59,231 nt of DNA from IMG/VR virus record IMGVR_UViG_3300032212_000006, positions 1-59,231 of that record, one strand, 5' to 3'. Below are positions 10,049 through 28,380 of the stretch, in pieces. The notes beneath the pieces are model-generated. The model ran no database searches, had not been told where the DNA came from, and saw nothing but the letters and a program-made list of their open reading frames with translations. The position numbers were made by a program, and so were the translations under genes. Source of the DNA: a virus. Its lineage: Duplodnaviria > Caudoviricetes. Positions within the stretch are counted from its first letter, which is position 1. Each line of letters begins with the position of its first letter.

Positions 10049-10753
10049 ATGTCAGATTTTATAGCTTTAAGCCACTCAAAAATTAATACGTTTAACGGTT
10101 GTCCTAGACAATTCTTTTTACAGTATATATCTAAAGTCTACCCTAAAGAAGGAGATAATCCTTACTTTATAAAAGGTAATCGTATACATAAAGAGTTAGA
10201 AAATTATGTAGTATGGTTACTTGGTGATAAACAAGGTGATCAGCCTAAGATGGGCGATGAAGCTAAAAATGGGTTACCAATAGTTAATCGACTTATGAGT
10301 AAGTTCGATGACTGCTACCCAGAGCAAAAGTTATCAATGGATGATAAATTTAAAAAGGTTGGATGGTTTGATAAAAAGACTAGATGGCGTGTAATTTACG
10401 ATTTCTTAGCAATGAAAAACGATTTAGCTATGGTAGTAGATTATAAGACTGGTAAAGTTAGAGACTATGCTGGTTTTGGTGGTCAATTACATTTAGGTGC
10501 TTGGGTATTATTTAATATCAGACCAGAAATTCAGACTGTTAATAATGCTTACTTATATTTAGAACATAAACACACGGTATCTATTAAGTTAGAGCGTGAT
10601 AAAGATATGAATAAATTAACTGATCACTTCTTAGAAGTATTTGATACTATAAATAGTGAAAAGAATTTTGATGAAAAGAAAAATAAGAATTGCTATTTCT
10701 GTCTTGCTACGCCTGAAATGTGTTCTCAAAAGAAAGCTAAACGAGAACTATAA
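10049..10753 (+). CDS. PD-(D/E)XK, Cas4/RecB-like exonuclease
   Basis: SHSKI...CPRQF; E..D..VDYKTGK; QL; C-terminal CYFC...C (Fe-S ligands). Confidence 0.85.
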   Translation: MSDFIALSHSKINTFNGCPRQFFLQYISKVYPKEGDNPYFIKGNRIHKELENYVVWLLGDKQGDQPKMGDEAKNGLPIVNRLMSKFDDCYPEQKLSMDDKFKKVGWFDKKTRWRVIYDFLAMKNDLAMVVDYKTGKVRDYAGFGGQLHLGAWVLFNIRPEIQTVNNAYLYLEHKHTVSIKLERDKDMNKLTDHFLEVFDTINSEKNFDEKKNKNCYFCLATPEMCSQKKAKREL

Positions 10754-11070
10754 TGGCTAAGGGACCTGAAGCCAAAGTAAAAGATTGGCTACGAAAAGAA
10801 CTTAATAAAGAGTTTCCAAATATATGGATATACATGGCGCCTGGAGGTAAGTTTGGACGTAAAGGTGTACCAGATTTGTTATGTTCGATTGACGGATTCT
10901 TTGTAGCTATTGAAGTCAAAGCTGAAGAAGGTATGGAAGGTACGCCGTCTCAGAAATACGAGATAGGTTTACTTAAACAGTCTAAAGCTATAGCTTTTGT
11001 CATGGACGGCAAGAATGTCTTAAAATTAAGGACACTAATTAAGTTAATATACTCTAAGATAAATTCATAG
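10753..11070 (+). CDS. VRR-NUC nuclease (resolvase-like)
   Basis: PE..V...GVPDLL...FVAIEVKA...Q. Confidence 0.85.
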   Translation: MAKGPEAKVKDWLRKELNKEFPNIWIYMAPGGKFGRKGVPDLLCSIDGFFVAIEVKAEEGMEGTPSQKYEIGLLKQSKAIAFVMDGKNVLKLRTLIKLIYSKINS

Positions 11071-11116
11071 TATATTATATAAGTTAAATTTATTAAGAGA
11101 ATAGCGGAGAATTAAA

Positions 11117-11788
11117 ATGAATGTAAAGATGAATTGTATTACTCATCCATTAATACCTCGTGAAATAGCAGACAATGAGAGTAAGTTTGGACAAATAATG
11201 AATCCAGAAGAGTATATGATATACTGTGGACGTGTATCATCTCCAGATAATCGATTAAACCATGCTACTGCGCCTGGATTACTTAAATATTTAATCGATC
11301 ATCAACACTGGTCACCTTTTGAAATGATTTCTATAGGTATTGAGATTGAAACATCTCGTGCTATAGCACAACAAATGTTACGTCATCGCTCATTTAGTTT
11401 TCAAGAGTTTAGCCAACGCTACGCTAAAGTCGATAGTATGGAGCCTATTGAATTACGTAATAAAGCTGAAAAGAATCGTCAATCATCATCTGAACCAGTT
11501 ACTGACGATATGCTGAATGATAAAGCTAATGCAGCTGTAAAACTTTGTCAAGATGTATACGAAGACTTAGTAGATAATGGCGTATCAACTGAAACAGCAC
11601 GATTTATTCTTCCATTAACAACTCAAACTACAGTTATTATGCACGGCACATTACGTTCCTGGATTCACTTCTTTGCTCAGCGTTGTGATGATCACGCTCA
11701 AAAAGAAATTCGTGAAATTGCATTTGCAGCTCGTGAATTAATATCTAAACAATGTCCTTGGACTGCATCAGCTTTAGGTTGGGTTTAA
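11117..11788 (+). CDS. thyX: flavin-dependent thymidylate synthase
   Basis: Signature RHRSFSFQEFSQRY; HWSPFE; ARFILP; HAQKEIR. Confidence 0.95.
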   Translation: MNVKMNCITHPLIPREIADNESKFGQIMNPEEYMIYCGRVSSPDNRLNHATAPGLLKYLIDHQHWSPFEMISIGIEIETSRAIAQQMLRHRSFSFQEFSQRYAKVDSMEPIELRNKAEKNRQSSSEPVTDDMLNDKANAAVKLCQDVYEDLVDNGVSTETARFILPLTTQTTVIMHGTLRSWIHFFAQRCDDHAQKEIREIAFAARELISKQCPWTASALGWV

Positions 11789-11789
11789 T

Positions 11790-12011
11790 ATGACTGACGC
11801 ACAAGAACAATACGTTGAAGTAATAGATAAACAAATAGTCAAAGTAAGAGATAAAAGCTTTGGTATTATAGTTAGAAAACACTTATTATTTCACGAAGTT
11901 ATTGTGCGTCAAGCTAAACCTAGACGTGAATTCGTTACAACTGGTACTGAATCTGAAGTATTAAACATGAAAAAGAAAGGCCTTAAAAGTTTACTTAGGG
12001 GAAGAGTATGA
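11790..12011 (+). CDS. hypothetical protein
   Basis: Packed in operon. Confidence 0.55.
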   Translation: MTDAQEQYVEVIDKQIVKVRDKSFGIIVRKHLLFHEVIVRQAKPRREFVTTGTESEVLNMKKKGLKSLLRGRV

Positions 12012-12214
12012 GCGAATTACTATTAGCAATATCATTGGTATCTATAGCGCTATCAGGTATAATGTCTGTAAAGGTAGTACTAGATACGTATACTTATTTA
12101 TGGGATTATGAGTATAATAAATTAATGAAGTGGCCGTTTATTCAAAATGTAATACTTACTATGACATTATGGCTAACTACAATATCATTAATAATACCTT
12201 GTAGGTGTATTTAA
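12008..12214 (+). CDS. small two-TM membrane protein
   Basis: Two hydrophobic segments; ATGA overlap. Confidence 0.55.
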   Translation: MSELLLAISLVSIALSGIMSVKVVLDTYTYLWDYEYNKLMKWPFIQNVILTMTLWLTTISLIIPCRCI

Positions 12215-13608
12215 TGGGTTTATTAGTTCCATTTACTAAGTATTCTTGGCCTTCAAAATACGATAATCCTTTACAGAATCAAGTAAAGACAGTTAAGTTT
12301 ATGCTCGCTAATAAGCGAGGATTTATACTTAGTACTATGGGTACTGGTAAAACACTTAGCTGCCTATGGTTTTGTGATCTATTATACGTAAATACCAAAA
12401 TAACGAAGGTATTAATAGTAGCCCCATTATCTACGTTGCAAAGTGTTTGGGCAGACGAGATATTTTTTAATTTCTTAGGTGTGCCGTTTACTATATTACA
12501 CGGATCTAAACAAGAGCGTATCAAGCGATTAGATTCAGGTGCACTCTATTACATCATTAACCACGATGGTATAAAAGTTATTGAGCAAGAGCTAAGAGAT
12601 AAGAGATTTGACGTAATAATAATCGATGAATTAACCGCGTATAAAAATGCTAGGTCTGATAGAACTAAATGTATGAAGAGAATAGCAGACGGTAGCAAAA
12701 CAAAGCAACCTGCTGTATATGGTTTAACAGGTTCTATCACTGCAAATTCTCCATTAGACGCTTTTGGTCAAGCAAGAACTGTAAATCCTAATAATCCAAA
12801 ATTACCTAAATATTATGGTAGGTTTAGAGATTTACTTACTACCAAATTTGATGAGTTCACGTATATACCGAGGTTGGGTTGGGAGAATATATTAAAACCT
12901 ATGCTATACCCATCTATACGATTCACTATGGACGAGTGTATAGATTTACCACCTATTGTCTATGAAACTAGACAGTGTGATATGACTAAAGAACAAACAC
13001 GAGTATATAAAGATTTAAAGAATGACTATATAGCTCAATATAATGATGGACTTATTACAGCTGCAAATGCGGGTGTAAAGGTTTTAAAGCTATTACAAGT
13101 CAGTTGTGGTGCCGTAATAGATAAAGAAGGTACAGTTCAAGAATTTAGCAAGTCTCCAAAATTAAAAATCATTCAAGAAGTACATGAACAATTAGATAGA
13201 AAGAAATTAATAATATTCGTATTATTTAAAGCGTCTATAAAGCAAGTTGAAGAGTTTTTAAAATCTAAAAAGATATCGTGTGGAGTAATATCTGGCGATA
13301 TACCAATGAAGAAGCGATCTCAAGTATTTGATAGTTTTCAAAGAGGTGATTTAGAAGTTATAATAATTCAACCTTCAGCGGCAGCTCATGGGCTGACATT
13401 GACAGCAGCAAGCACTGTAATATGGTATACTCCAGTGCCGTCAAACGAAATATATATTCAGGCTAATGCACGAGTACGTAGACCTGGACAAAAATATAGA
13501 CAACTAGTTATACGATTAGAGTCATCACCTGTTGAACGTAAAATGTATAAAGCACTGGATAATAAAGATAAAATGAGTAATACATTATTATCTATGTTCC
13601 AAGAATAA
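12205..13608 (+). CDS. SNF2-family SF2 helicase
   Basis: MGTGKT, IIDEL, LTGS, HGLTLT, QANARVRRPGQ; probable start ATG 12214. Confidence 0.92.
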   Translation: MYLMGLLVPFTKYSWPSKYDNPLQNQVKTVKFMLANKRGFILSTMGTGKTLSCLWFCDLLYVNTKITKVLIVAPLSTLQSVWADEIFFNFLGVPFTILHGSKQERIKRLDSGALYYIINHDGIKVIEQELRDKRFDVIIIDELTAYKNARSDRTKCMKRIADGSKTKQPAVYGLTGSITANSPLDAFGQARTVNPNNPKLPKYYGRFRDLLTTKFDEFTYIPRLGWENILKPMLYPSIRFTMDECIDLPPIVYETRQCDMTKEQTRVYKDLKNDYIAQYNDGLITAANAGVKVLKLLQVSCGAVIDKEGTVQEFSKSPKLKIIQEVHEQLDRKKLIIFVLFKASIKQVEEFLKSKKISCGVISGDIPMKKRSQVFDSFQRGDLEVIIIQPSAAAHGLTLTAASTVIWYTPVPSNEIYIQANARVRRPGQKYRQLVIRLESSPVERKMYKALDNKDKMSNTLLSMFQE

Positions 13609-13676
13609 ATCACTGGGATTTAATATACAACGAAATAAATACGTAGTATAATATATCTATAAGTGAGGGAAATGTT

Positions 13677-14066
13677 ATGGCTAAAATAGATCAGGTAATC
13701 GCTAAATACTTAGAGTTTAGGGCTGAGTTAGACGCGAAACGTAAGCAATTTAAACAAGATGAGAAAGACTTAAAATTTAAGATGGAACGGTTATCTATGT
13801 GGATGGCCGGTCAATCTAAAGGTTTGGGTGTAAATAGTTTTGCTACAGATAGTGGCACTGCTTTTAAGCATACCAAGAAGGTTGTTAGGGTAGCTGATTG
13901 GGAACAAGTTCTCAAATTTATGTTAGAAACTGATAATCTTCAAATGTTAGAAAAACGTATCGGAAAAATTAATACTCTGGATATAATCGATGAAACAGGC
14001 GAAATTCCTCCAGGCGTAGAGTATTTTGAAGAGATTGAATTTCAAGTTCGTAAACCAACAAAATAG
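13677..14066 (+). CDS. conserved-type phage replication-module protein
   Basis: Promoter TATACA-N17-TATAAT (13624-13652); coiled-coil N-terminus; GTAF...DW...PPGV pattern. Confidence 0.7.
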   Translation: MAKIDQVIAKYLEFRAELDAKRKQFKQDEKDLKFKMERLSMWMAGQSKGLGVNSFATDSGTAFKHTKKVVRVADWEQVLKFMLETDNLQMLEKRIGKINTLDIIDETGEIPPGVEYFEEIEFQVRKPTK

Positions 14067-14074
14067 GAACTCTT

Positions 14075-14920
14075 ATGAGTAAAGACATAGTATTACCAGA
14101 CTATTTACGTGACCTTATGGAAGAAGGTAAGGTCGTAGACGATGCAGCAAACTTGATCACGGCTCAAGATTCTGTACCACGAATTTCACTTAAAGGTAAT
14201 AAGTTCAGTCTTATTGTTGACGGTGAAGTACAAGAAAAGATCAAAGAAGAAATGATGGTTATCATTTTAGGTACTCAACCTGATAAAGGTAACGCTAAAA
14301 CATTTTATCTTGGTGATTATGCTCCCGATGACAGCTCACCACCTGATTGTTCTTCTTCAAACGGTGTTAGTCCTGACGGTTGGGTTAGCAGTCCTCAAGC
14401 AGATCTATGCGCTACATGTCCTCAAAATAAATGGGGTTCAGCCGAATCAATGAGCGGTGGTAAGGCTAAAGCATGTCGCGATTCTAAACGACTTATGGTA
14501 TTAAATGCTAAAGATTTGGAAGGTCCTATTTACGTATTAAACGTAACTGTATCATCACTTAAAAATCTGACAGCATACGGTAAGCGTTTAGCTGAAGCAC
14601 ATATGCCCTTAGCTGCTGGCATTACCAAAGTAAGTCTTGATGAAGACAGCGATTTTCCTAAATTAGAGTTTGCTTTTGCAGGCGCTATGAAAGAAAAAAT
14701 GGGCGTTGCTATGCTTAAGCGTAGTTCTGAAAAAGAATGGGATACTGGCCCTGCTCTTGAAGCGCCTAAAGCTAAACCTGCACTGGCTCAATCAGAAGCT
14801 CCTACTGAAAAGGCCGAAGAAAAAGTCGTTGAAGGTACAGTCGAAAAAGATGACTCATCTGATGATAGCTCAACTACGGATGTAGATGACCTATTAGGTG
14901 ACTGGGAATCTGAAGACTAA
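14075..14920 (+). CDS. putative single-stranded DNA-binding protein
   Basis: PRIS, PDC.S, CATCPQNKWGS, GKAKAC; long acidic tail ending DDLLGDWESED. Confidence 0.65.
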   Translation: MSKDIVLPDYLRDLMEEGKVVDDAANLITAQDSVPRISLKGNKFSLIVDGEVQEKIKEEMMVIILGTQPDKGNAKTFYLGDYAPDDSSPPDCSSSNGVSPDGWVSSPQADLCATCPQNKWGSAESMSGGKAKACRDSKRLMVLNAKDLEGPIYVLNVTVSSLKNLTAYGKRLAEAHMPLAAGITKVSLDEDSDFPKLEFAFAGAMKEKMGVAMLKRSSEKEWDTGPALEAPKAKPALAQSEAPTEKAEEKVVEGTVEKDDSSDDSSTTDVDDLLGDWESED

Positions 14921-14966
14921 TATTAACTTGGGCCGTCTACATGAGGCCCACATTTAGGGTATACAA

Positions 14967-16616
14967 ATGAGTAAGTCACTATTATTAAGTTTAGGTCACG
15001 GTTCAAGTGCGGTGTATTTGGAAAACGGTGAAGTAGTTTGCGGCTATGAAGAAGAGCGATTAACACGAGTTAAATCTGATAGCAGATTTCCAATTAACGC
15101 CATTACTAAAATAACAGATCAACACGATTTGGACGGATGTGAAATTTATATAAGCCACTGGTTTATATTTGGTGAGTTGCCAGATGTACCAAATAAGTAC
15201 TACGATCCGCTTTGGATTGCAAGAACATTTCCTGATTCACCTATTTACAGTGTAAGTACTGAATTTACACATCATGATGCACACGCTTATTCAGCATTAG
15301 CATTTACAGATTTAGACGAATTCACTCAACATGATACGTTAGTCATTGTTGCAGATGGATTTGGAACAATGGGCGAGACTATGTCCATATACACATTACT
15401 AGATGGTTTACCTGAGTTACACCATCGTACCTTTGGATTTAGTTCTTCATTAGGCCTAATGTATCAGTACGCAACAAGTTATCTTGGCATGAAAGAAAAC
15501 CAAGACGAATACAAATTACTTGGTTATGAGTCTCAAATAGACACGCTATGTGCTACTAAAGATTTGAAGACTGATTTCATTCACTCATTTGCTTTAGCTG
15601 AAGTTAAGCGTCAAATGAAAGACATTAGTAAATACGATACAAATGAGCGCTTTGATCCCATATGTAATGTAGACGCATTACCTGCTTTAAAGCTAAAGTA
15701 CAGAGATCATTTTGATACTCTATTAAAACATTTGAATTGTGACTTTACTGACGAAGAAAAACGAATAGTGATAGCTTACTATGTGCAAATGAGATTAGAA
15801 ATGTCATTTGAAGCCATAATTAAGGCGTACGGTGTTAATAATCTAATATTATCAGGTGGCGTATTTATGAACGTCAAACTTAATAATTCTATCGTACAAC
15901 AAGTAAAAGGTAAAGTATCTATATTACCAATATGTGGTGATCAAGGTGCTCCTATCGGATTATACGATTATGTTAATAACGATTTTAAGTGGCCATATAA
16001 CTTATGTTGGGGTACACGTAGCTTATTCACAGGTGTAATGGATAATAGAATGTACTCTGTAGATAGCGAATCAATGGCATACCAATTTATGGTAGATTCA
16101 CTAAACAGAAATAAGATCGTTAATTTAGTACGTGGAGATATGGAATTCGGTTCTAGAGCATTATGTAATACTAGTACTATAGCCCTGCCAACTAAAGAAA
16201 ATGTGGAGTATATAAATACTCTTAATAATCGTTCAACTGTAATGCCTATGGCCCCTGTAATTCATGAAGATCATATGGACGACTTTTTCGACATATCTTA
16301 TAAGCGAGTACATAAGTCACTTGGGTATATGATATGTACGACTATGTTCAAAGTTATGAGTGATTTTATTAGAGGTGTTGCTCATAATGTTCCATTTTCT
16401 AATGAATTTACAGGTCGGCCTCAAGTTGTATCTGATTCTAGTAATCCTTTAATGGCTAAACTATGTAAACGGTTTAACGGTCCGTTAATAAATACTAGCT
16501 TTAATGTACACGGAGAACCTATAGTATATAGTATGAGTGATGTTAAAAGTAATCATGCATACCAAGTATCTCGTGATACAGAAAATCGTGTAGTAACAAT
16601 TATAGTGGAGAAGTAA
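14967..16616 (+). CDS. NodU/CmcH/TobZ-family O-carbamoyltransferase (putative 5hmC carbamoyltransferase)
   Basis: GHGSSA, EEERLTRVK, HHDAHA, DGFG, SLGLMY, GGVFMNVKLN, GDQG, MEFGSRAL, NTSFNVHGEP. Confidence 0.92.
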   Translation: MSKSLLLSLGHGSSAVYLENGEVVCGYEEERLTRVKSDSRFPINAITKITDQHDLDGCEIYISHWFIFGELPDVPNKYYDPLWIARTFPDSPIYSVSTEFTHHDAHAYSALAFTDLDEFTQHDTLVIVADGFGTMGETMSIYTLLDGLPELHHRTFGFSSSLGLMYQYATSYLGMKENQDEYKLLGYESQIDTLCATKDLKTDFIHSFALAEVKRQMKDISKYDTNERFDPICNVDALPALKLKYRDHFDTLLKHLNCDFTDEEKRIVIAYYVQMRLEMSFEAIIKAYGVNNLILSGGVFMNVKLNNSIVQQVKGKVSILPICGDQGAPIGLYDYVNNDFKWPYNLCWGTRSLFTGVMDNRMYSVDSESMAYQFMVDSLNRNKIVNLVRGDMEFGSRALCNTSTIALPTKENVEYINTLNNRSTVMPMAPVIHEDHMDDFFDISYKRVHKSLGYMICTTMFKVMSDFIRGVAHNVPFSNEFTGRPQVVSDSSNPLMAKLCKRFNGPLINTSFNVHGEPIVYSMSDVKSNHAYQVSRDTENRVVTIIVEK

Positions 16617-16618
16617 AA

Positions 16619-17011
16619 GTGATAAATACTGAACAAGTAATTGATTTTAACCAAACAGTTCTTGGCGTTGAAGCAAGACTTAAGGGGTTATTAGAAAATG
16701 CGGAACTATCAATTAGCCATAAGTGTATGGTGGAAGAAGCCGATGAATTGCTCACAGCTCATAAAGAATTCGATTTTATTGGTTCTGTGGACGCATGCCT
16801 TGACTCTATCTATTTCAGCGTTGGCGTACTATATAAACTTGGATTGACGTCTAAAGAAATGAGTGATTGTTTTGACGCAGTCCATAACGCTAATATGGAA
16901 AAGAAAAAAGGCACTAACGCAAAACGTGATACTGGTGCAGCTGACGCAGTTAAACCTGAAGGTTGGATTGCACCTGAAAAACGAATTGCTAAAATCTTAG
17001 GTATGGATTAA
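16619..17011 (+). CDS. MazG/PRA-PH-like nucleotide pyrophosphohydrolase (putative dCTPase)
   Basis: EEADE...DACLDSIY...VHNANMEK...KPEGW. Confidence 0.85.
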   Translation: MINTEQVIDFNQTVLGVEARLKGLLENAELSISHKCMVEEADELLTAHKEFDFIGSVDACLDSIYFSVGVLYKLGLTSKEMSDCFDAVHNANMEKKKGTNAKRDTGAADAVKPEGWIAPEKRIAKILGMD

Positions 17012-17556
17012 TGGCTATAATTTTAGAAGGCCCAGATAACGCTGGCAAAACAACACTTAGCAATTTGTTAAGTGATAAATTAAAGCTGCCTGTATTTCAT
17101 TCAGGCGGTCCACCTAAAAATAATAGTCATGCTAAAGTATGTTGTGACTTACAAAACTCATTAGCACATACTAATTGTGTATTAGATAGAATAACATCTA
17201 TTAGTCAACAAGTGTATGCTAATCGTTTAAATGATCCTATGTTACTTGATGAGTTGGAAAAATTATGTAATATACCTACCAATATAATTGTGTATTGTCG
17301 TCCATCAAATGAAAAACTGATGGATTTTTCAACTCATACAGTTGAAGAGCATGATACTGAAGATCATATGGCTTACGTCATTGAGAACCATCAAAATATA
17401 GTATCTATCTACGACAGACTCATGGTTAGTGTACCACATTTACATTACGACTGGTCAAGTGATATAAACGTAGATCATTTTATTAAGCAGTTACACTTAT
17501 GTATTAATATCCCTAATTATAAGGATAATATTTTACTTAAGCCTATAAAGCTCTAG
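17011..17556 (+). CDS. deoxynucleoside monophosphate kinase
   Basis: IILEGPDNAGKTT P-loop; LDR motif. Confidence 0.85.
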   Translation: MAIILEGPDNAGKTTLSNLLSDKLKLPVFHSGGPPKNNSHAKVCCDLQNSLAHTNCVLDRITSISQQVYANRLNDPMLLDELEKLCNIPTNIIVYCRPSNEKLMDFSTHTVEEHDTEDHMAYVIENHQNIVSIYDRLMVSVPHLHYDWSSDINVDHFIKQLHLCINIPNYKDNILLKPIKL

Positions 17557-17565
17557 GAGAAGACT

Positions 17566-18378
17566 ATGTCACAAGGCGAAACGTTTTTGAAATTGTACGA
17601 AGATGTAATGACTAACGGTCAAGTCATTTCACCTCGTGGAGAAAAAGTATTAGAGATAGAAGATTATCAATTTACTTTAGACCCATATGAACGATTTACA
17701 TCTTTTAACGCACGTAAATTGAGTCTTAAATATATTAAGGCTGAACTTATTTGGTATTTACGAGCTAACCCATATGATACCATGATTACTGAGCACGCTC
17801 AAATATGGACTGATTTACGTCAGCCTGATGGTCAATTCTTTTCTAACTATGGTCAATATTTATTCGATCAAAACACTGGCATATTTAATGTTATGGAAAC
17901 ATTAGTAAATGATAAAGATTCTCGTAGAGCGATCATATCATTACTTCAGCCTAAGCATTTATTTATAGACAATAAAGATGTTGTTTGTACATATAATTTA
18001 AGTTTCCGTATTCGTAATAACAAGTTAAATATGTCAGTAAACATGAGAAGTAACGATGCAGTTTGGGGTACTACTAATGACGTAGCTGCCTTCTCATTCG
18101 TACATGAGATGTTATTTACTTATTTAAAAGATCACTATATTGATCTGGAATTAGGTACTTACACTCACAAGGTAGATTCTATTCATATCTACGAACGTCA
18201 TTTTGAAATGGCAAAAGCAATCATCGATGAAGGTACCAAAGGTTATTATGAGTTAACTGTACCTAAAATGAAAAGTAGTGATGAGTTAGAGCAATTACTC
18301 ATTACAGTTAAATCAGGTCAATTTAATTCTGACTATGAAAGTGAAGAATCTTCATTTACTAATTGGTTGCTATCATGA
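17566..18378 (+). CDS. thymidylate-synthase-family enzyme, probable dCMP hydroxymethylase
   Basis: SRRA, catalytic DVVC, RSNDAVWGTTND (Asp at the specificity position as in T4 gp42), SIHIYERH. Confidence 0.85.
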   Translation: MSQGETFLKLYEDVMTNGQVISPRGEKVLEIEDYQFTLDPYERFTSFNARKLSLKYIKAELIWYLRANPYDTMITEHAQIWTDLRQPDGQFFSNYGQYLFDQNTGIFNVMETLVNDKDSRRAIISLLQPKHLFIDNKDVVCTYNLSFRIRNNKLNMSVNMRSNDAVWGTTNDVAAFSFVHEMLFTYLKDHYIDLELGTYTHKVDSIHIYERHFEMAKAIIDEGTKGYYELTVPKMKSSDELEQLLITVKSGQFNSDYESEESSFTNWLLS

Positions 18379-18878
18379 GACCGTCAGTACCAGTATGGTT
18401 GATGGGTATGGCTAAGCATGCTGCATTACGCAGTACGTGCTTACGCCGTAGCGTAGGTTGCGTATTAGTTAACGAACGCGATCAAATACTTTCGACTGGA
18501 TATAACGGTGTACCGTCAGGCTTTAAACACTGCAATGAAGGCGTATTAGAAGGTACTATGGATTGGGCAGGTGTATCTTATCCAAATAAATGCTCAGGTG
18601 CCGATGCGCCGTCAGGTGAAAAGTTAGATGCGTGTAACGCAGTTCATGCGGAACAAAATGCATTGTTACAGTGTCCGAATGTTTATGAAATAAAAACTGC
18701 GTATGTAACAGCTTCACCTTGCATGCATTGTATAAAGTTACTCTTAAACACGTCTTGCGAAGTGATTGTCTTCGACGAAGAGTACACACACTGCGAAGCA
18801 AAGACTATGTGGATTGACTCAGGTCGGACGTGGTTAAATATTAATGATCTTGATGAGAACGTAGATACCAATATGTGA
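18363..18878 (+). CDS. dCMP deaminase
   Basis: RSTC..RSVGC, GYNG, HAEQNA, SPCMHC; probable start ATG 18375. Confidence 0.93.
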   Translation: MVAIMRPSVPVWLMGMAKHAALRSTCLRRSVGCVLVNERDQILSTGYNGVPSGFKHCNEGVLEGTMDWAGVSYPNKCSGADAPSGEKLDACNAVHAEQNALLQCPNVYEIKTAYVTASPCMHCIKLLLNTSCEVIVFDEEYTHCEAKTMWIDSGRTWLNINDLDENVDTNM

Positions 18879-18885
18879 GGTTGAT

Positions 18886-19044
18886 GTGGGCCAGGATATT
18901 ACAGCTACTGATAATGATAGACGAATAGCATTAAGAGGTATAATGCTTCATATTAAGGCTACTAATATAGCAGATAAGTATGATAGTTTGGCTCACGCAT
19001 TACATGAGACTGGTATGTGGGACTACATATTCCATCAAGTATAG
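18886..19044 (+). CDS. small hypothetical protein (52 aa, not in ORF track)
   Basis: GAGG SD, GTG start, open to TAG. Confidence 0.45.
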   Translation: MGQDITATDNDRRIALRGIMLHIKATNIADKYDSLAHALHETGMWDYIFHQV

Positions 19045-19108
19045 GTATTGGCTTATTCATACGCTGATACTAGGCGATTAAATAATATAATGCAAAATAG
19101 AGGATGAT

Positions 19109-19336
19109 ATGGGTAGAGCAAAGCAAAACAAAGTATACGAATTTAGTGACGGTGATACCATAACTAGAGAAGAGCTTGAAGAGTTATGTGATAAGAAGAA
19201 TTTCAGTATGTCTACAGCTAGATCTCGTATAACTAAAGGAATTACTCGTGCAGACTTATTTAAGCCGCCTCAGAAGCCTAAAGGTAACTCTAATTGGAGT
19301 AAATGGACAGGTGACCCTAAATTAGCTCATAAGTGA
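19109..19336 (+). CDS. small basic, possibly DNA-binding protein
   Basis: GAGGA SD; TREEL...STARSRITKG resembles an HTH-like motif. Confidence 0.6.
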   Translation: MGRAKQNKVYEFSDGDTITREELEELCDKKNFSMSTARSRITKGITRADLFKPPQKPKGNSNWSKWTGDPKLAHK

Positions 19337-19405
19337 CTACCCGCTAAACACTGAATATTTTTATTAGTATAAACTACAAGAACATTTTACTAGGAGATAC
19401 ATTAT

Positions 19406-20050
19406 ATGTCTAATTACAGAGATTTACATATAGATATTGAAACTATGGGTACTGACGTTAATACGGCACCTATTTTATCTATTGGTGTAGTACCTTTTCA
19501 CGCTATAACAGGTGAAATATTCGAAGATGACGGCATTGAAATTCATTTAAGTCTAGAAGAGCAACTTAATGGTTCTAGAATCTTAAACGTCGATACACTC
19601 TTATGGTGGATGGATCAGTCAAATGAAGCTCGCAATAGAGTAACGTCAGGTCAGCGTGAAGAACGTGTCTCTGTTAAATACGGTTTAGGTTTACTTAATA
19701 ATTACTTATCGACTCATCCACATGAAAACTTATGGGCCAAAGACCCAGACTTTGACGTAAGCATGATTAAATCATTACATAGTGATTTTAAAGGTGCAAT
19801 AAACTTAGCTACAATAGGCGAACCTTTAAAATTTATAGACGACCCAGAATTAAATATTAACCCGTTTAAATGTAAGGCTGTACGTACCATAATTGATGCG
19901 GCTAGAAGTATTATTCCTACATACGGAGAATGGGACAAACGTAATAGCGGTGTTGAACACGGTGCATTAGCTGATGCTATTAATCAATCAAAGACTGTGA
20001 TTGAGTGTTACAACATCATTGGCGGCGCGTCTGACTGGGAGATAGAATAG
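19406..20050 (+). CDS. DEDDh 3'-5' exonuclease (Rv2179c/exonuclease VIII-like)
   Basis: IDIETMG, ILSIG, TLLWWMDQS, DPDFD, HGALADA. Confidence 0.85.
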   Translation: MSNYRDLHIDIETMGTDVNTAPILSIGVVPFHAITGEIFEDDGIEIHLSLEEQLNGSRILNVDTLLWWMDQSNEARNRVTSGQREERVSVKYGLGLLNNYLSTHPHENLWAKDPDFDVSMIKSLHSDFKGAINLATIGEPLKFIDDPELNINPFKCKAVRTIIDAARSIIPTYGEWDKRNSGVEHGALADAINQSKTVIECYNIIGGASDWEIE

Positions 20051-20607
20051 TGAAAGTAAATCGTAGATCATTTTTAAAAGGTTTAGTTGCTATAGGTATA
20101 GCGCCTAAAGCTGTAATGGCAGCTAAAGATTTAGAACCTGTTAAGCCTATAGAAGTTCCTAAATCTGAACCTAATCCTATAATTAAGGCTCAAGGTAAGC
20201 CTTACTCACTTGCTTCAAATATGCGTACATTACGTGCAGGTGACCCAGGCTCTATGGATTGCAAAGTTTATTTGGCTGACTATGATATGACACCTTTTGG
20301 AGTTATAGCTTATACGTGTGAGTATATGTCAGACATGTATTTAGATTTAGCTGGTAAACGTATACAATCACATACTCCTGATTCTGCTAGAGTCACATTA
20401 GAAATATATGTATCTGATGAATTAATGTACTTTTTACGTAAAAATGACTTAGAAAAATACATAGATTCGTTTGAAGCTGTACCATATGACGCGAATAGAG
20501 TATATTTAACTGGACCTGGTAAGTTAGTATATGACGCAGGGCCTACTGAGATAGTAGCAAATTTAAAACCTGAGCTGTCTGACGAGAGTCAAATTGACTT
20601 GTCGTAG
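20050..20607 (+). CDS. hypothetical protein with twin-arginine (Tat)-like signal
   Basis: NRRSFLK, hydrophobic stretch, AVMAA, then Pro-rich linker. Confidence 0.65.
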   Translation: MKVNRRSFLKGLVAIGIAPKAVMAAKDLEPVKPIEVPKSEPNPIIKAQGKPYSLASNMRTLRAGDPGSMDCKVYLADYDMTPFGVIAYTCEYMSDMYLDLAGKRIQSHTPDSARVTLEIYVSDELMYFLRKNDLEKYIDSFEAVPYDANRVYLTGPGKLVYDAGPTEIVANLKPELSDESQIDLS

Positions 20608-20715
20608 GTATATATACGGTAGCATGTTGAAGTAGCTAGAGATAATCTGGACTAACTTGGATATACACCTTTAATATAACTATAAGTTAAAAATAATTTA
20701 AAAAGTAGGCGTAAT

Positions 20716-21789
20716 ATGAGTAAATCATCTAAAGTCACATTATACAAGAACCATCTAAACAATATAGGAACGTGGTCTATTTGGTTTGAAGATAACGTAA
20801 TCCATATAGAGCATGCTCAAACTGAAGGTGGAGCACCTATACGACATACAGAAGAAGTACCTGAAGGTAAACAATCTCGTACGTTAAAACAGCAAGTGAT
20901 TCATAGGATAAAATCTAGAATCAATAAACAACTAGATCGAGGATACGTTAAAAATAGAGAGGACGCATTAGTACCTCCTACTAACTCTTTAAATCTGCAG
21001 CAACCTATGTTAGCTTTAGCGTATAAACGTGCTGGAGTAATTGATAACGAATCAGCATATTGGCAATTAAAACTAGACGGTCACAGATGCTTAGTTACAA
21101 AGGTAGACGGCGAAGTTTTAGCATATTCTCGTCAAGGTAAATATATAACTACCATAAGTCATATACTTGATGATTTAGAAAATATACCTGAAGGTATCGT
21201 ATTAGATGGTGAATTATACCATCATGGCACTAAGCTGCAGACTATTGGAAGTTGGGCTAAACGTTTACAACCAGATACAGTCAAATTAACATATCACGTT
21301 TATGATATAGTAAAAGGCGTACAATTTTCTGAACGACTAAAAATACTAGTCGATATATTCGATGATATAGATTCTTCTAGTGTCGTACTACATGACACAT
21401 ATAAAGTAGATGAAAACTTTCAAGCTCTTAATCAATTACTAATTGCTAGAGAGGCAGGTTACGAAGGTATTATGATTCGACATACTATACGTGGATATGA
21501 AACTGGTAGACGAAGCAGATCGTTAGTAAAGGTAAAGGCATTTGAAGATACTGAAGTAGAAGTAATAGGTGCACACCCAAGTAAAGAAGGTTGGGCGGTA
21601 CTTGAATGCAAAACACAAGATGGAAAATTTGTTGACGCATCGGCACCTGGTACCAAAGAAGAGAAATTCAAAGTTATGATAAGTATAGATAAATATATTG
21701 GTCGCTTTGTAACAATAGAGTTCGCAAATTATACGGATGACGGTATTCCATTTCAACCCGTAGCAACACGCTGGAGAGAAGACTTATGA
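20716..21789 (+). CDS. ATP-dependent DNA ligase with N-terminal WGR-like domain
   Basis: PMLA, KLDGHR, LDGELY, YD, EGIMIR, KVKAFED, P.....R. Confidence 0.92.
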   Translation: MSKSSKVTLYKNHLNNIGTWSIWFEDNVIHIEHAQTEGGAPIRHTEEVPEGKQSRTLKQQVIHRIKSRINKQLDRGYVKNREDALVPPTNSLNLQQPMLALAYKRAGVIDNESAYWQLKLDGHRCLVTKVDGEVLAYSRQGKYITTISHILDDLENIPEGIVLDGELYHHGTKLQTIGSWAKRLQPDTVKLTYHVYDIVKGVQFSERLKILVDIFDDIDSSSVVLHDTYKVDENFQALNQLLIAREAGYEGIMIRHTIRGYETGRRSRSLVKVKAFEDTEVEVIGAHPSKEGWAVLECKTQDGKFVDASAPGTKEEKFKVMISIDKYIGRFVTIEFANYTDDGIPFQPVATRWREDL

Positions 21790-22079
21790 GTAAAATGAGT
21801 AACAAACGAAAATATAAACGATTAGCAAATCCTGGACAGGAAAAGGCCGAAGGTAGTGCCAGACAGGAAAAGGCCGAAGGTAGTGCAAATCAAGGTTGGG
21901 AAGTAACCACTAATATAGAAGAGGCAATGGCCAAAGGTTATATTGGTGAGACATTCTTAATACCAAATAAGTTATCTCAAATGATTCATTTGATTTTAAC
22001 TAATAAGCAATTACCTATGGCTAGATTATATTATTGCGGCACTCCCGATGAGCGCCTAAATTATATGTTTAAGTTATAG
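21786..22079 (+). CDS. hypothetical protein with 9-aa tandem duplication
   Basis: ATGA overlap; QEKAEGSA twice; last gene of the + arm. Confidence 0.55.
   Translation: MSKMSNKRKYKRLANPGQEKAEGSARQEKAEGSANQGWEVTTNIEEAMAKGYIGETFLIPNKLSQMIHLILTNKQLPMARLYYCGTPDERLNYMFKL
21835..21886 (+). repeat. 27-bp tandem duplication
   Basis: GACAGGAAAAGGCCGAAGGTAGTGC twice. Confidence 0.9.
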
Positions 22080-22463
22080 CGTATCTTCTGCACTTACGAC
22101 ACAATCTTGTAGCTCGTAAGTGTAGGTGAATATATCTACTAAATCATCAAAATGATTTTTCCAATCTGAAAAAGAAACACACATTAAATCTCTAGATTCA
22201 TTTACTTCCCAACTAGAAGGCCTACGCAGTATAGGGCTAGTCGTTAACAGACACTTGGGCGTTTTGTTTATCTCTACGTTGGAAGCTACGGGTTTTTCCT
22301 TCAAACTCAGTAAACACGATGTCTGTATTAGTAGTAAACAACTGAACAACACGAGCTGGGTCGGTTTTCGCAAGCTTTTCAATAGCAGATAAATTAAACT
22401 TTTGCTTTGTTTTTCTTGCATCATCTTCATGCTCCAATCTCTTATTATATAATTCCACTTCAC
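22074..22463 (-). CDS. putative o-spanin (Rz1-like lipoprotein), overlapping Rz
   Basis: Alternative frame over the Rz 3' half; hydrophobic stretch ending IQTSC; true start uncertain. Confidence 0.55.
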   Translation of the reverse strand: MKWNYIIRDWSMKMMQEKQSKSLIYLLLKSLRKPTQLVLFSCLLLIQTSCLLSLKEKPVASNVEINKTPKCLLTTSPILRRPSSWEVNESRDLMCVSFSDWKNHFDDLVDIFTYTYELQDCVVSAEDTL

Positions 22464-22647
22464 GTTTATCTTTTTCAGCCATAGCTACGCCAAGTAATTC
22501 TATAGTTCCATTAGCGTCCTTTAATTCAGATTCTAATCTACCTTTTTCCATAATTTCAAGTACTACCCAACCACCAGCTCCAATTAAAGCAGTTACTATG
22601 CCTAACATGGCAGTCCATTTAACTATAGAACCTATACCTAACATCAT
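22237..22647 (-). CDS. putative i-spanin (Rz-like)
   Basis: N-terminal TM plus coiled coil; downstream of endolysin and holin candidates. Confidence 0.65.
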   Translation of the reverse strand: MMLGIGSIVKWTAMLGIVTALIGAGGWVVLEIMEKGRLESELKDANGTIELLGVAMAEKDKREVELYNKRLEHEDDARKTKQKFNLSAIEKLAKTDPARVVQLFTTNTDIVFTEFEGKTRSFQRRDKQNAQVSVND

Positions 22648-24924: not shown

Positions 24925-27900
24925 CTATATAGTTAGAAGGGACACCGTCCTGGATTCATCTGTAAGTGACTGAGTTCTAGTTTCATCACTTATTAGTTGA
25001 ACAGATAATACACCAGATAATATTTGTTGTATAATTATACCATCAAGGTTACCATATGTAAACGTTGACTTACTTATTAATGAATCTATACTAGACAGTA
25101 CAGAATGTGCGGTTATTATAACTGAATCTATATACGTATTTAATGATTGACTTAATTGTAGTACAGAGTCTACACTAGATATACTATACATAGATTTTTG
25201 TAATATAGAATTTAGTGATGTAGATGTATTAATATTCGCTACTATGATCGATTCTAATAAAGATGACAGGTTATTAGCTATCTGCAATACTCCATCTGTA
25301 CTAATAGTAGTAGATATTACATTCTGCAACACAGATTCAATAGATGTATTGATATTATTACCTGATAAAGTCAATATAGAATCTACTGTGGATGTTATGG
25401 TTTTAGATTGTTGAACCAGTGAATCTAGTGTTGATATTAATTGAGCTACGTCTTGAATAAGTGAAGATACATCTGTAAACACTACAGAACCACCTGATAA
25501 TATAGCATTGACAGACGTTGTTGTTAATAGCGATGCCTGCAACATAGAATCTAAAGATGCATTTGAAAACTCATTAGACTCGAGTATAGAATCTATAGCG
25601 GAATTAATAGTAAACGATGCGGATAATATAGAATCTAAATTAGATGATACTGAGGTATTACTTTGCAGCATGGAATCTACTGATATGTTATTTAGCAATG
25701 TATTCAATATTCGTGAATCTATACTAGATATTAAATTTAAACTATCACGCAACATGGCGTCTGTATTTGCAGATGTAGATATCAGTTTAGATAGCATACT
25801 ATCTACAGACGAAGTAGTACTAACACCTTGTAACATAAGTCTACTGTCTAAAGACGCAGACAAAACTAATTGACTTTGTACTATTGAATTTAAAGATAAA
25901 TTAATACTTCGTGATACAATAGGAAGAGCAGGAGGCGTATAATCAGTAACTTCTGTGGCAGAATACGCGTAGTTGTCAAACATGAAGTAAAACAACTCAA
26001 CATCACTATCTGTATTATTACTGTTACCTGCACCTAAAGACCACCATTCCGCAGGAGGAGCTGTCCATGTTTGTGTTTGTGTATCTCTGAGTGTGTCATC
26101 TACATAAAGTTTAACAGTACGATTTACGCCGCTACCTTCTATAGTAATAACCACTTTGTACTCTGTTGTTGCGCTTGGAAGTGTATATGTAACAGGTGCA
26201 GCACCGCTGATATTGAAACTCAATACACCACTTGCGTTTATATCTGCAAACCAAGACGAAGAACCGAGATGGCTATCAATGAGCGTGTTGTTGGCTTTGA
26301 ATGTTGTAGCCTTAATGCCAAGACATATCGTACATTCATCAGGAATCTTAGCAAATACATCAACATAGTATTGTTCGCTTAAGTGCAGACTGCCTGCAGT
26401 GCGTGTAGGCGCCGCTGGTTTTGTTGACGTATAGATTCGTTTTGCAGCAAAACTGTTGTATTTAAAACTGCCACTGACAATGTGTATATCTTCTACTTCC
26501 CCAGCAACAGGATCACACCAGCTTCCTATAACCGCACCTGCCATATCAAATTGGAATATGCGTTCTGCACCCAACGTGCCAGATTGATTTTTAGCAACAT
26601 GATACATCGTGTCACTGGAGGCTTCATGATATGCGCCATTGCAATGTATGCGAATGTCGAGGTCAATAACACCGCTGTATGTTTGAGCTGTTAAGTCGTA
26701 TCTCCAAACGTGTGAGCCGTAACTGTAACTTACCGCCAACGCCTCATCACCTGCAACATCAATTGCTACACCGGACATAGCAAACTTTTCTGCAGTACAA
26801 TCGATATAGTGGTCAAGTGGCAAACCCGCCAATGTGGTGTCATACGCAGCAATGGTCATATTCGACCACGATGCACCACTGTACCAACCCACATCTACAT
26901 ATAGTAAACCGGTAACTGCCGTACCACCACCGATTGCATTAGGGGTATTGGGAGAAGTTGGTAAACCGCTGTATGGCGTTGAGTTAGTCTCATGCGTCGT
27001 TGCCAAATCCAAACTTTTCTGCACAACAGAAGGCGTGGTCTGGCCGCCAATATAGGCGTAAGTGCCATCTTCTGAATACATCTGATACTCAGATTGCGCA
27101 GCAGAGGTATTTGTTACAGTCAGCACTTCACCCACTACAGCATTAAGCCGCGAATCGTAATTATTCTCGCAGACTGCACCACTGGATTCATTAAATGCCA
27201 ATTCGATTAATGGAGTGCTTGTGGTTTGGGTTGCATCATAATGAACGCCGATGTCTGTCGTTGCAGCGGCCGGTCTGGAGTTGCCGAATATATCCTCAGA
27301 TGGCACATCGGCATCAACAGATGAACCTACACCTGCACCCACAAGTGCTGATTGCCAAGCAAGACTAAATACGCCTTGGAATCTGTTGTGGTAATAGTCA
27401 GGGTCGTTGAAGTCTGAAACGGTAACTGGGTTAGTGCCTGTGCCTGCCGCAGTTGCACAGTTGGTAAATGTTACTGTGCCGGTTCCGCCTGATGTCACAT
27501 TGCAGTTGTACGCACCGTTCTTTGCAACAGTAGCAACGGAAGAGTTGTTCCATAACCCTCTATAGCAGTTATCCTGAATACAGTTGTACTGTCTGTGAGT
27601 TTTATTTGTCGAGCCATTGTAACTTGCAATATAGTCATTAGAGCCGCGTTTGATATCCAACTCAATCACGTTGAAGTCATCAAGATCGCCATTAGCCCAG
27701 TAAATGCCACGGATGTAATTACCGCCTGTTGCAGCACACTTCAACAGCATATTGCGTCGAATCATTTTGCCTGTGCCAGTCCAACTAATAGCTCTTCTGG
27801 AATTGGTAGTCGGAGCCCAGAGAATCTGGAAGTTTCGAAGCGTAATGTAATCTGTATCAATCGTCAGTGCAGTTGCGTTACCAACACTCAATTCTGATTT

Positions 27901-28380
27901 GGTGCTGTCATACTGAGCACCTGCAAAATCGCCTGATAGAATCAGTTGGTTGACTGCGTCTGTAATGGTAGTTGACGAATGATTTACAACAGTGTTGTCG
28001 CTGTTACGTGCGATAATATCAACTGCACCCCCGCTCGTATCGTCAATTGTAACCAGCTCGACTTCACCATCAGTTGCACCTGTTATCGTAGTGTCTGTGC
28101 CTAACGGCGATCCAGTCAACACCTCGTATTGAAGCGTTGTGCCAGTCAAGTCTATAAGTCGTGCAGTAGCGCCAGAACCAGTAAACGTGATGGTCTGATT
28201 TGCGGTAGCGAATGCAGATGTGACTGTTACGGTAGACTGATTAATGTTGCTGTAATCTTGCCCGTTGGCACACTCAGCTGCAAGTGCGGCATCTCGGCTG
28301 GTATAGGCATTTGCCCAATCCCAGCCTGTGCCTGAACCCGTAGCCAGCGGATCTGCATACTTTTTTACGTCAACTGTCAT
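24925..28380 (-). CDS. large fibre/adhesin-like virion protein
   Basis: 1151 aa; possible beta-helix and LamG-like segments (KLYVDD...SLGA); C-terminal ~15-aa S.DS.L repeats. Confidence 0.7.
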   Translation of the reverse strand: MTVDVKKYADPLATGSGTGWDWANAYTSRDAALAAECANGQDYSNINQSTVTVTSAFATANQTITFTGSGATARLIDLTGTTLQYEVLTGSPLGTDTTITGATDGEVELVTIDDTSGGAVDIIARNSDNTVVNHSSTTITDAVNQLILSGDFAGAQYDSTKSELSVGNATALTIDTDYITLRNFQILWAPTTNSRRAISWTGTGKMIRRNMLLKCAATGGNYIRGIYWANGDLDDFNVIELDIKRGSNDYIASYNGSTNKTHRQYNCIQDNCYRGLWNNSSVATVAKNGAYNCNVTSGGTGTVTFTNCATAAGTGTNPVTVSDFNDPDYYHNRFQGVFSLAWQSALVGAGVGSSVDADVPSEDIFGNSRPAAATTDIGVHYDATQTTSTPLIELAFNESSGAVCENNYDSRLNAVVGEVLTVTNTSAAQSEYQMYSEDGTYAYIGGQTTPSVVQKSLDLATTHETNSTPYSGLPTSPNTPNAIGGGTAVTGLLYVDVGWYSGASWSNMTIAAYDTTLAGLPLDHYIDCTAEKFAMSGVAIDVAGDEALAVSYSYGSHVWRYDLTAQTYSGVIDLDIRIHCNGAYHEASSDTMYHVAKNQSGTLGAERIFQFDMAGAVIGSWCDPVAGEVEDIHIVSGSFKYNSFAAKRIYTSTKPAAPTRTAGSLHLSEQYYVDVFAKIPDECTICLGIKATTFKANNTLIDSHLGSSSWFADINASGVLSFNISGAAPVTYTLPSATTEYKVVITIEGSGVNRTVKLYVDDTLRDTQTQTWTAPPAEWWSLGAGNSNNTDSDVELFYFMFDNYAYSATEVTDYTPPALPIVSRSINLSLNSIVQSQLVLSASLDSRLMLQGVSTTSSVDSMLSKLISTSANTDAMLRDSLNLISSIDSRILNTLLNNISVDSMLQSNTSVSSNLDSILSASFTINSAIDSILESNEFSNASLDSMLQASLLTTTSVNAILSGGSVVFTDVSSLIQDVAQLISTLDSLVQQSKTITSTVDSILTLSGNNINTSIESVLQNVISTTISTDGVLQIANNLSSLLESIIVANINTSTSLNSILQKSMYSISSVDSVLQLSQSLNTYIDSVIITAHSVLSSIDSLISKSTFTYGNLDGIIIQQILSGVLSVQLISDETRTQSLTDESRTVSLLTI

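Follow-up and report, generated by a model that had tools for sequence, protein, structure and literature searches.

Candidate pathway for 5-carbamoyloxymethylcytosine in the genome of an uncultured Xp15-like siphophage

The window analysed in this study is the whole of the IMG/VR record IMGVR_UViG_3300032212_000006 (59,231 bases; completeness estimate 100%), and it is the genome of an uncultured Xp15-like siphophage of about 59 kb. Five genes in series at positions 14967–18878 encode a carbamoyltransferase, a MazG-like nucleoside triphosphate (NTP) pyrophosphatase, a small P-loop kinase, a homolog of the thymidylate synthase ThyA and a dCMP deaminase. Our analysis suggests that the phage probably replaces cytosine with 5-hydroxymethylcytosine (5hmC) and then carbamoylates it, following a T4-style pathway in which a carbamoyl group takes the place of glucose as the final decoration. 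The preliminary description of this DNA had proposed the same conversion of 5hmC to 5-carbamoyloxymethylcytosine, and the proposal is supported by the cytosine-type ThyA homolog, by the hallmarks shared with the clade of a validated 5hmC carbamoyltransferase, by the set of Pfam domains that co-occur with such enzymes, and by the lack of a glycosyltransferase. The interpretation starts from what was observed: which genes are present, their catalytic residues, the residue that marks cytosine-type specificity, membership of the clade, and synteny.

In the proposed pathway, the MazG-like pyrophosphatase would turn dCTP, and probably dUTP too, into the monophosphate, keeping plain dCTP from the phage PolA and feeding dCMP forward. 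The ThyA homolog, cytosine-specific through Asp172, would use methylene-tetrahydrofolate to convert dCMP to 5-hydroxymethyl-dCMP (5hm-dCMP); the small P-loop kinase would phosphorylate this product, and host NDP kinase would complete 5hm-dCTP for polymerisation into DNA. The carbamoyltransferase, with ATP and carbamoyl phosphate and via a carbamoyl-adenylate, would then turn the 5-CH2OH group into that of 5-carbamoyloxymethylcytosine, with 5hm-dCTP or nascent single-stranded DNA (ssDNA) as its substrate. In parallel, the dCMP deaminase would divert part of the dCMP to dUMP, from which the flavin-dependent thymidylate synthase ThyX would make dTMP. The replacement of cytosine in the genome may be complete, and the modified base would be expected to protect the DNA from restriction.

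The carbamoyltransferase and its clade

The carbamoyltransferase matched Carbam_trans_N (E-value 3.3e-23) and Carbam_trans_C (1.2e-27) in Pfam, both above the cut-off, and the 'Nol-like carbamoyltransferase' family phrog_1601 in PHROGs (2e-71). It combines a Kae1-like N-domain with a YrdC-like C-domain, and its relatives of solved structure are NovN (2.1e-26), a second carbamoyltransferase (7xb6), GdmN and TobZ. The Kae1-like metal-site residues H103, H106, D130 and D325 were invariant in 52 aligned homologs and are kept in outgroups too. Relatives were found at 57 loci in IMG/VR, with carbamoyltransferases 29–45% identical to that of the window, and a large protein collection yielded 1,360 relatives at E≤1e-20, all of them generically named.

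The canonical arginines of the YrdC domain are not retained in the window enzyme. Residues 425–430 read VMPMAP and align with FRPFAP of NovN, 7xb6 and GdmN, M426 standing in place of the Arg, and T402 replaces the Arg of the 'ALGNRS' motif. Both replacements were found in all 57 locus sequences that reach the two positions (three further ones are incomplete) and in all 119 database homologs, whereas Arg is kept at both positions in NovN, 7xb6 and GdmN and in three phage 'Nol-like' outgroups (S-SSM7, HTVC008M and RsoM2USA_199). The preliminary description had pointed to VMPMAP in place of the usual FRPFAP; the substitution itself was borne out, but it is not peculiar to the window, as Met is the norm. 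Since the change from Arg to Met is clade-wide and the outgroups keep Arg, VMPMAP is a clade signature, not an oddity of one phage. Judged by its sequence, the window carbamoyltransferase is a member of a divergent subfamily of the NodU/CmcH/TobZ superfamily and not a canonical member.

The differential positions of 5hmC carbamoyltransferases have been named as TobZ W408, G421 and R423 (Yang et al. 2021, eLife, PMC8670742; our statements on this paper refer to the accessible portions of it). The canonical motif W..(13)..G-N-R corresponds to W408/G421/R423 in NovN (9s2t), and the window reads L387/C400/T402; the match to the TobZ residues was derived from motif spacing and the NovN numbering. 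The enzyme that was validated in the same paper has I/C/T/M where the window has L387/C400/T402/M426, both enzymes having a hydrophobic residue instead of the canonical Trp, and it reads VMPFAP at the FRPFAP motif (PMC8670742). A comparison made by eye showed long identical blocks between the two enzymes over the full length; two 9-residue motifs of the validated enzyme had no match among the collected proteins or the open reading frames (ORFs) of the loci. The validated enzyme requires ATP and carbamoyl phosphate, converts 5hmdC to 5-carbamoyloxymethyl-dC (5cmdC) in ssDNA and in 5hmdCTP, and is inactive on 5mdCTP and 5hmdUTP (PMC8670742). By analogy with the activity of this clade member in vitro, the window enzyme would carbamoylate 5hmC in DNA or in nucleotides.

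The validated enzyme is several-fold weaker on double-stranded DNA and modifies RNA and 5hmCTP as well, and 5cmdC was produced in vitro and in a phage predicted only (PMC8670742). These findings would fit a phage that makes 5hmC DNA and in which carbamoylation is absent, partial or directed elsewhere, i.e. to RNA or free nucleotides only, so that the virion DNA would contain mainly 5hmC. We regard this as quite unlikely, as the carbamoyltransferase gene is intact, keeps all the residues that are invariant across the 52 homologs, and is translationally packed with the pathway genes, and as the Pfam scan of the genome revealed no alternative decorating enzyme. In addition, MetaGPA contigs with the carbamoyltransferase–ThyA pair came through a selection against DNA in which cytosines are sensitive to APOBEC3A (PMC8670742).

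The cytosine-type ThyA homolog

The ThyA homolog matched Thymidylat_synt with an E-value of 2.1e-26 and is the sole homolog of ThyA in the genome. Its best matches in PDB were the CMP hydroxymethylase MilA (2.1e-25) and T4 dCMP hydroxymethylase (2.6e-20), and the best match to a thymidylate synthase reached only 8.9e-14. The motif RSND..WG..ND of the preliminary description is present, and its last Asp, read there as a mark of dCMP specificity, indeed aligned with Asp179 of T4 gp42 and with Asn in the dUMP enzymes SPO1 gp29 (a dUMP hydroxymethylase) and T4-type td. This residue, D172, is the equivalent of E. coli N177; Asp is found here also in Xp15, Effie, RsoM2USA, the two BF486P2 copies, T2 gp42 and Xp12. 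The Asp/Asn specificity rule is cited to the mutagenesis work of Graves 1992, Hardy 1992, and Liu and Santi 1992 (PMC8670742). The catalytic and substrate-binding set was likewise kept in an alignment with T2 gp42, Xp12, SPO1 gp29 and td (E60, Y95, R120/R121, C141, R161, S162, D164, H207 and Y209). The predicted cytosine specificity is thus well supported by D172, the alignment to enzymes of known product and the intact catalytic set.

The residue after the catalytic C141 is T142, i.e. Thr as in T2 gp42 and MilA, whereas Xp12 has Pro at this position, td has His and SPO1 has Asn. The identity of the window protein was 30% to T2 gp42, 27% to SPO1 gp29 and 22% to Xp12. The product is predicted to be the hydroxymethyl and not the methyl derivative.

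The two key genes were linked well beyond the window. Of the 57 IMG/VR loci, 48 had a ThyA homolog no more than 6 kb away from the carbamoyltransferase, and in seven of the nine others the sequence downstream of the carbamoyltransferase is at most about 1.7 kb long. Asp occupied the specificity position in 71 of 71 linked ThyA-like ORFs (those of the IMG/VR loci, Xp15, Effie, BF486P2 and RsoM2USA), and Cys-Thr was present in 69 of them; the 71 are not independent cases, because near-duplicate loci are included (72 distinct of 76 sequences, counting the references). A quick maximum-likelihood tree of 72 ThyA-family sequences, in which long branches were flagged and deep nodes are unreliable, grouped the window enzyme with Xp15, Effie, RsoM2USA and the IMG/VR locus L010 (Shimodaira–Hasegawa-like approximate likelihood ratio test, SH-aLRT, 91) and placed Xp12 together with td apart from them (SH-aLRT 97).

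Many of the loci carry a second ThyA copy. Two differing Asp-type ThyA homologs were found in L015, L016, L019, L021, L022, L025, L029, L031, L036, L038–L042, L050 and L058–L060, and also in L007 (Bacteroides phage BF486P2). The paired types, 'RSSN...LPYD', with Asn at the otherwise conserved Asp of E. coli D169, and 'RSND...FCND', form two well-separated clades. The carbamoyltransferase-linked ThyA homolog at L011:3411-4328 grouped with SPO1 gp29 (SH-aLRT 98); it has Cys-Asn like gp29, yet Asp at the specificity position, an unusual combination.

An Asp at the N177 position is no criterion for telling hydroxymethylases from methylases, as the dCMP methylase of Xp12 shares it. The ThyA homolog could then be a dCMP methylase of the Xp12 kind that gives a 5-methylcytosine (5mC) genome, with the carbamoyltransferase acting on a substrate other than DNA bases, for instance a sugar, a metabolite resembling an antibiotic or a molecule of the host surface. 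In the tree, the window enzyme and T2 gp42 are not sisters, with the reservation that the deep nodes are unreliable; Xp12 too has a ThyA–deaminase pair beside a pyrophosphatase; and the canonical NodU/TobZ enzymes, going by their PDB names, carbamoylate small molecules. Against this, the window enzyme scored higher to MilA and T4 gp42 than to any thymidylate synthase, is closer to T2 gp42 than to Xp12 in identity, and has Cys-Thr as the hydroxymethylases do, not the Cys-Pro of Xp12, a rule for which three hydroxymethylases and a single methylase served as references. Xp12 is paired with td in the tree, apart from the clade of the window enzyme. Moreover, the carbamoyltransferase clade occurs together with Asp-type ThyA homologs in the 48 loci and its hallmarks match those of an enzyme that needs the hydroxyl of 5hmC, and an Xp12-style route from 5mdC to dT would be unneeded with ThyX. 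This combined reading, a methylase and a carbamoyltransferase that does not act on DNA bases, is improbable.

Supply genes, cassette layout and genome context

The genome encodes ThyX, which was not in the gene list of the preliminary description and belongs to the same nucleotide pathway (Thy1, 7.7e-48, 163 bits vs a cut-off of 24.8; phrog_85, 2.3e-63). ThyX was found also in L010/G001, the closest relative (3.2e-50), and in Xp15 (1.6e-12), and searches of Effie and BF486P2 did not reveal it. With ThyX and a single ThyA homolog, the phage has its own enzyme for the conversion of dUMP to dTMP, and the ThyA homolog is free for another reaction. ThyX also gives an ordinary job to the deaminase, which would supply it with dUMP. 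The deaminase matched dCMP_cyt_deam_1 (2.7e-18) and phrog_174 (1.2e-34), and its HAE and PCxxC zinc motifs align with those of the dCMP deaminases of S. mutans, T4 (1vq2) and human. It is 52% identical to the deaminase of the Stenotrophomonas phage AXL3 and 28% identical to that of Xp12.

The role of the deaminase could differ from dUMP supply, because some deaminases beside Asp-type ThyA genes prefer 5mC or 5hmC nucleotides (preprint 10.1101/2024.12.05.627091, again cited from its accessible portions). If the window deaminase were of this mSCD-like kind and preferred 5hm-dC nucleotides, 5hm-dUTP would also be made, and the DNA would contain modified thymine in addition to modified cytosine. 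In an in vivo 5hmdC screen, 7 of 90 ThyA-adjacent deaminases on modified contigs gave 5hmdU, and the selectivity for 5mC/5hmC was polyphyletic; however, the cognate ThyA homologs of all seven positives were predicted in silico to make 5mdCMP, which was confirmed for five of them (10.1101/2024.12.05.627091). ThyX completes a plain route from dCMP via dUMP to dTMP, the window deaminase is only distantly similar to that of Xp12, as the identity given above indicates, and 5hmdUTP was not used by the validated carbamoyltransferase. We therefore give this version of the pathway little probability.

5-Hydroxymethyluracil (5hmU) phages such as SPO1 likewise have a gene set of deaminase, ThyA homolog, kinase and pyrophosphatase. 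A uracil-based pathway, in which the deaminase makes dUMP, the ThyA homolog (to which SPO1 gp29 is recognisably homologous, at 27% identity) produces 5hm-dUMP and 5hmU is the base that the carbamoyltransferase decorates, is nevertheless very improbable, as Asp occupies the specificity position, where SPO1 gp29 and td have Asn, as Asp was found in all 71 clade-linked ThyA homologs, and as 5hmdUTP is no substrate for the validated enzyme.

The MazG-like protein matched PRA-PH (1.4e-06, 29.1 bits vs a cut-off of 21.3), phrog_671 (1.6e-17) and phrog_18404 (about 1e-17), and its relatives in PDB are 3nl9, a putative NTP pyrophosphohydrolase (1.1e-4), and DR2231 (3e-3). Homologs adjoin cytosine-type ThyA genes in Xp15, AXL3-like and Xp12-like phages and are common in siphophages of 45–60 kb. 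It is the only NTP pyrophosphatase found in the genome, in which we did not find a trimeric dUTPase. We infer by analogy that the protein may be a dCTP (and dUTP) pyrophosphatase, a functional analogue of T4 gp56.

The kinase matched phrog_761, 'thymidylate kinase' (3.9e-17), and Pfam AAA_18 and Thymidylate_kin remained below threshold; its family conserves EGPDNAGKTT (the P-loop), DRxTxISQxVY and YCRPS. An AlphaFold2 model (predicted local distance difference test score, pLDDT, 87.6) resembled best the fold of SPbeta YorR (2axp/3kb2; template modelling score, TM, 0.67–0.74), followed by thymidylate and deoxynucleoside kinases (TM about 0.5), and T4 gp1 was absent among the 50 fold matches listed. 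The model thus points to a nucleotide-kinase fold, and the enzyme may be the 5hm-dCMP (dNMP) kinase of the pathway.

In addition to the Asp shared with Xp12, the position in the tree, the few references behind the Cys-Thr rule and the deaminases that prefer modified nucleotides, further points weigh against the proposed pathway. The dCTPase activity of the MazG-like protein is an analogy, because its nearest solved relatives include DR2231, which we take to be dUTP-directed. The fold match of the kinase model carries no substrate information, and the best relative of the carbamoyltransferase in databases is only 53% identical. The sole sequencing run that contains the window, from a microbial-mat metagenome that is probably the source sample, consists of assembled contigs; it gives no modification signal, because contigs cannot show miscalls at modified cytosines.

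Positions of the cassette genes, ThyX and the two genes upstream of the cassette in the window (aa, amino acids)
Feature	Position	Strand	Families
ThyX (flavin-dependent thymidylate synthase), 223 aa	11117..11788	+	Thy1 PF02511, phrog_85
129-aa protein	13677..14066	+	PHROG labelled 'minor head protein'
p281, 281 aa	14075..14920	+	
O-carbamoyltransferase, 5hmC-carbamoyltransferase clade, 549 aa	14967..16616	+	Carbam_trans_N + Carbam_trans_C, phrog_1601
MazG-like all-alpha NTP pyrophosphatase, 130 aa	16619..17011	+	PRA-PH PF01503, phrog_671, phrog_18404
Small P-loop nucleotide kinase, 181 aa	17011..17556	+	phrog_761 'thymidylate kinase'; Pfam sub-threshold
ThyA-family pyrimidine C5 one-carbon transferase, 270 aa	17566..18378	+	Thymidylat_synt
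dCMP deaminase, 167 aa from ATG 18375 (ORF opens with TTG 18363)	18375..18878	+	dCMP_cyt_deam_1, phrog_174

The five cassette genes, which lie at the positions first described, are all on the + strand and were assigned to families by Pfam and PHROGs, nearly abut. The first two genes are separated by 2 nt, the second and third overlap in TAATG, a 9-nt gap with GGAG before it follows, and the last two overlap in ATGA. The deaminase gene had been placed correctly within the cassette; its start codon is most likely not TTG 18363, where the ORF opens, but the ATG at 18375, which overlaps the stop codon of the ThyA homolog. The arrangement is not due to chance, because the same order recurs in Xp15, Effie and the IMG/VR locus L010. 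A scan of positions 10500–22500 gave 58 promoter-like and 5 terminator-like signals vs 53 and 5.1 expected, and was uninformative. The 46-nt spacer at 14921–14966, before the carbamoyltransferase gene, contains a GC-rich inverted repeat (GGGCC ... GGCCC) that the terminator scan did not report and that may be a transcript-processing or attenuation element.

The two genes upstream of the carbamoyltransferase keep their position in Xp15, Effie and L010. The second of them encodes p281, a protein with four invariant cysteines (C92, C112, C115 and C134) and an acidic C-terminal tail. The phage family of p281 is large, with 4,450 representatives at E≤0.001, and has no name; p281 gave no sequence match in PDB. 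The best PDB fold for an AlphaFold2 model of p281 (pLDDT 87.1) had an E-value of 0.089, which is not significant, and a few OB-fold ssDNA binders appeared among the weak matches. Nearly all of its 43 matches at E≤0.001 in a viral library were unnamed, and one 'ssDNA binding domain protein' stood at rank 47. A role like that of a single-stranded DNA-binding protein is only hinted at by these model-based and weak matches. The predicted complex of p281 with the carbamoyltransferase scored 0.00 vs a mark of 0.32, a result that counts neither for nor against binding. The 129-aa product of the first gene matches a family whose label, 'minor head protein', seems misplaced in a replication module.

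The early region also codes for a primase-polymerase, PolA, a PD-(D/E)XK nuclease, an SNF2-type helicase, an exonuclease and an ATP-dependent ligase. A pooled Pfam scan of the remaining 66 ORFs revealed 14 families, mostly siphovirus structural and packaging proteins together with Cupin_2 and a DnaT-like protein. There was no glycosyltransferase, methyltransferase or TET/JBP protein by Pfam among these 66 ORFs, nor among the 15 neighbouring or early ORFs that were scanned singly with the five cassette genes. The earlier statement that no glycosyltransferase is present is therefore upheld at the sensitivity of Pfam.

The G+C content of the window is about 35–36%. It contains no tRNA genes, so tRNAs give no clue to the host, and a search with 6 kb against 50,697 phage records returned no relatives at the nucleotide level, kinship being visible at the protein level only. 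An identical carbamoyltransferase and kinase occur also on a database contig of 67,737 bases, a length that exceeds the 59,231 bases of the record; the actual genome, or its terminal repeats, may extend beyond what the record shows. The phage encodes a peptide deformylase (57300–57731, + strand; Pep_deformylase, 1.1e-34). The segment 26001–28000, within the ORF of a 1151-aa tail gene (24925–28380, − strand), has a G+C fraction of 0.45 vs about 0.35 for the genome, and could be a part for host recognition that was recombined or acquired.

Comparison with related phages and known systems

The full order of helicase, two small conserved genes, carbamoyltransferase, MazG, kinase, Asp-type ThyA homolog, deaminase and ligase was found in L010 (45–56% identity), in the Xanthomonas phage Xp15 (Alachuavirus) and in the Acinetobacter phage Effie. 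The latter two, in which an exonuclease accompanies the ligase, are collinear with the window at protein identities of 27–46% and are only distant relatives. Literature searches returned no report on the DNA chemistry of Xp15 or Effie, and no DNA-modification data were found in the accessible part of the RsoM2USA paper.

Carbamoylation of 5hmC had been described by us at the outset as rare but not new, and this is correct: the chemistry and the gene neighbourhood were reported in 2021 for contigs from metagenomes, and one enzyme was assayed in vitro (PMC8670742); searches on the base name and its abbreviation returned only that paper. The system of Yang et al. came from sewage and coastal metaviromes and has likewise a two-domain Carbam_trans_N/C enzyme of about 550 aa. 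Its modified contigs combine Carbam_trans_C with Carbam_trans_N, Thymidylat_synt (Asp177), PRA-PH, dCMP_cyt_deam_1 and MafB19-deam, which is the domain set of the window (PMC8670742); here, the Asp-type ThyA homolog, PRA-PH and the dCMP deaminase all lie within 2.3 kb downstream of the carbamoyltransferase. Compared with those contigs, the window is a different phage and a complete genome, and has in addition a recognisable kinase and ThyX.

The present analysis thus adds a complete genome that displays the whole nucleotide pathway, including the kinase and ThyX; two Arg replacements (T402 and M426) that diagnose the clade across more than 170 sequences; and a bridge of synteny from the cassette to cultured phages of Xanthomonas, Acinetobacter and Bacteroides. 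Cultured isolates would allow direct assays by liquid chromatography-mass spectrometry, restriction or defence evasion, and the base in native virion DNA is unreported in the literature searched, as far as its accessible text goes. For annotation, a 'Nol-like carbamoyltransferase' or 'hypothetical protein' whose gene adjoins one for an Asp-type ThyA homolog can be reinterpreted as an enzyme of DNA hypermodification.

The Stenotrophomonas phage AXL3 has the same core of deaminase, presumed cytosine-type ThyA homolog, kinase and NTP pyrophosphatase, and ThyX too, with a methyltransferase in the slot of the window's carbamoyltransferase (PMC7504290, accessible portions). AXL3 DNA was resistant to 35 restriction enzymes out of 37, namely those with G/C in their sites (PMC7504290). 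The Xanthomonas phage Xp12 has the same core and makes 5mC with no decorating enzyme, its ThyA homolog being 22% identical to that of the window and Cys-Pro at the catalytic site. In L070 (MW202621), an uncultured phage of 55.7 kb, the pyrophosphatase, ThyA homolog and deaminase are kept, the carbamoyltransferase is lacking, and a 'capping protein' gene lies upstream. MW202621 and AXL3 suggest a shared core with an exchangeable tailoring gene.

The observations could be joined into a broader picture, which we find unlikely as a whole. Here, 5-carbamoyloxymethylcytosine would be native and genome-wide both in the phage of the window and in its cultured relatives (Xp15, Effie, HHU4 and the B. 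fragilis BF phages); it would be installed on nascent ssDNA at the fork, with p281 as the partner that presents the ssDNA; and MazG, kinase, Asp-type ThyA and deaminase would make up a portable core, with a tailoring slot that changes between lineages and is filled by the carbamoyltransferase here, by the methyltransferase in AXL3 and by nothing in Xp12. If the base were native and genome-wide, the cultured relatives would be the first isolates in which it could be shown in virions.

The 5hmC pathway of T4 consists of the gp56 dCTPase, the gp42 dCMP hydroxymethylase, the gp1 dNMP kinase, the cd deaminase and td, followed by glucosyltransferases. The logic of the pathway proposed for the window is the same step for step, the ThyA homolog being a true homolog of gp42 (30% identity, with the equivalent of Asp179 and Cys-Thr) and the deaminase being homologous to cd. 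The two systems differ in that the window's final decoration would be carbamoyl and not glucose, and in that dTMP would come from ThyX and not from a ThyA-type td. Unlike T4, the window has a YorR-like kinase and, as its pyrophosphatase, a short MazG/PRA-PH protein, and as a siphophage of 59 kb it encodes PolA and a primase-polymerase.

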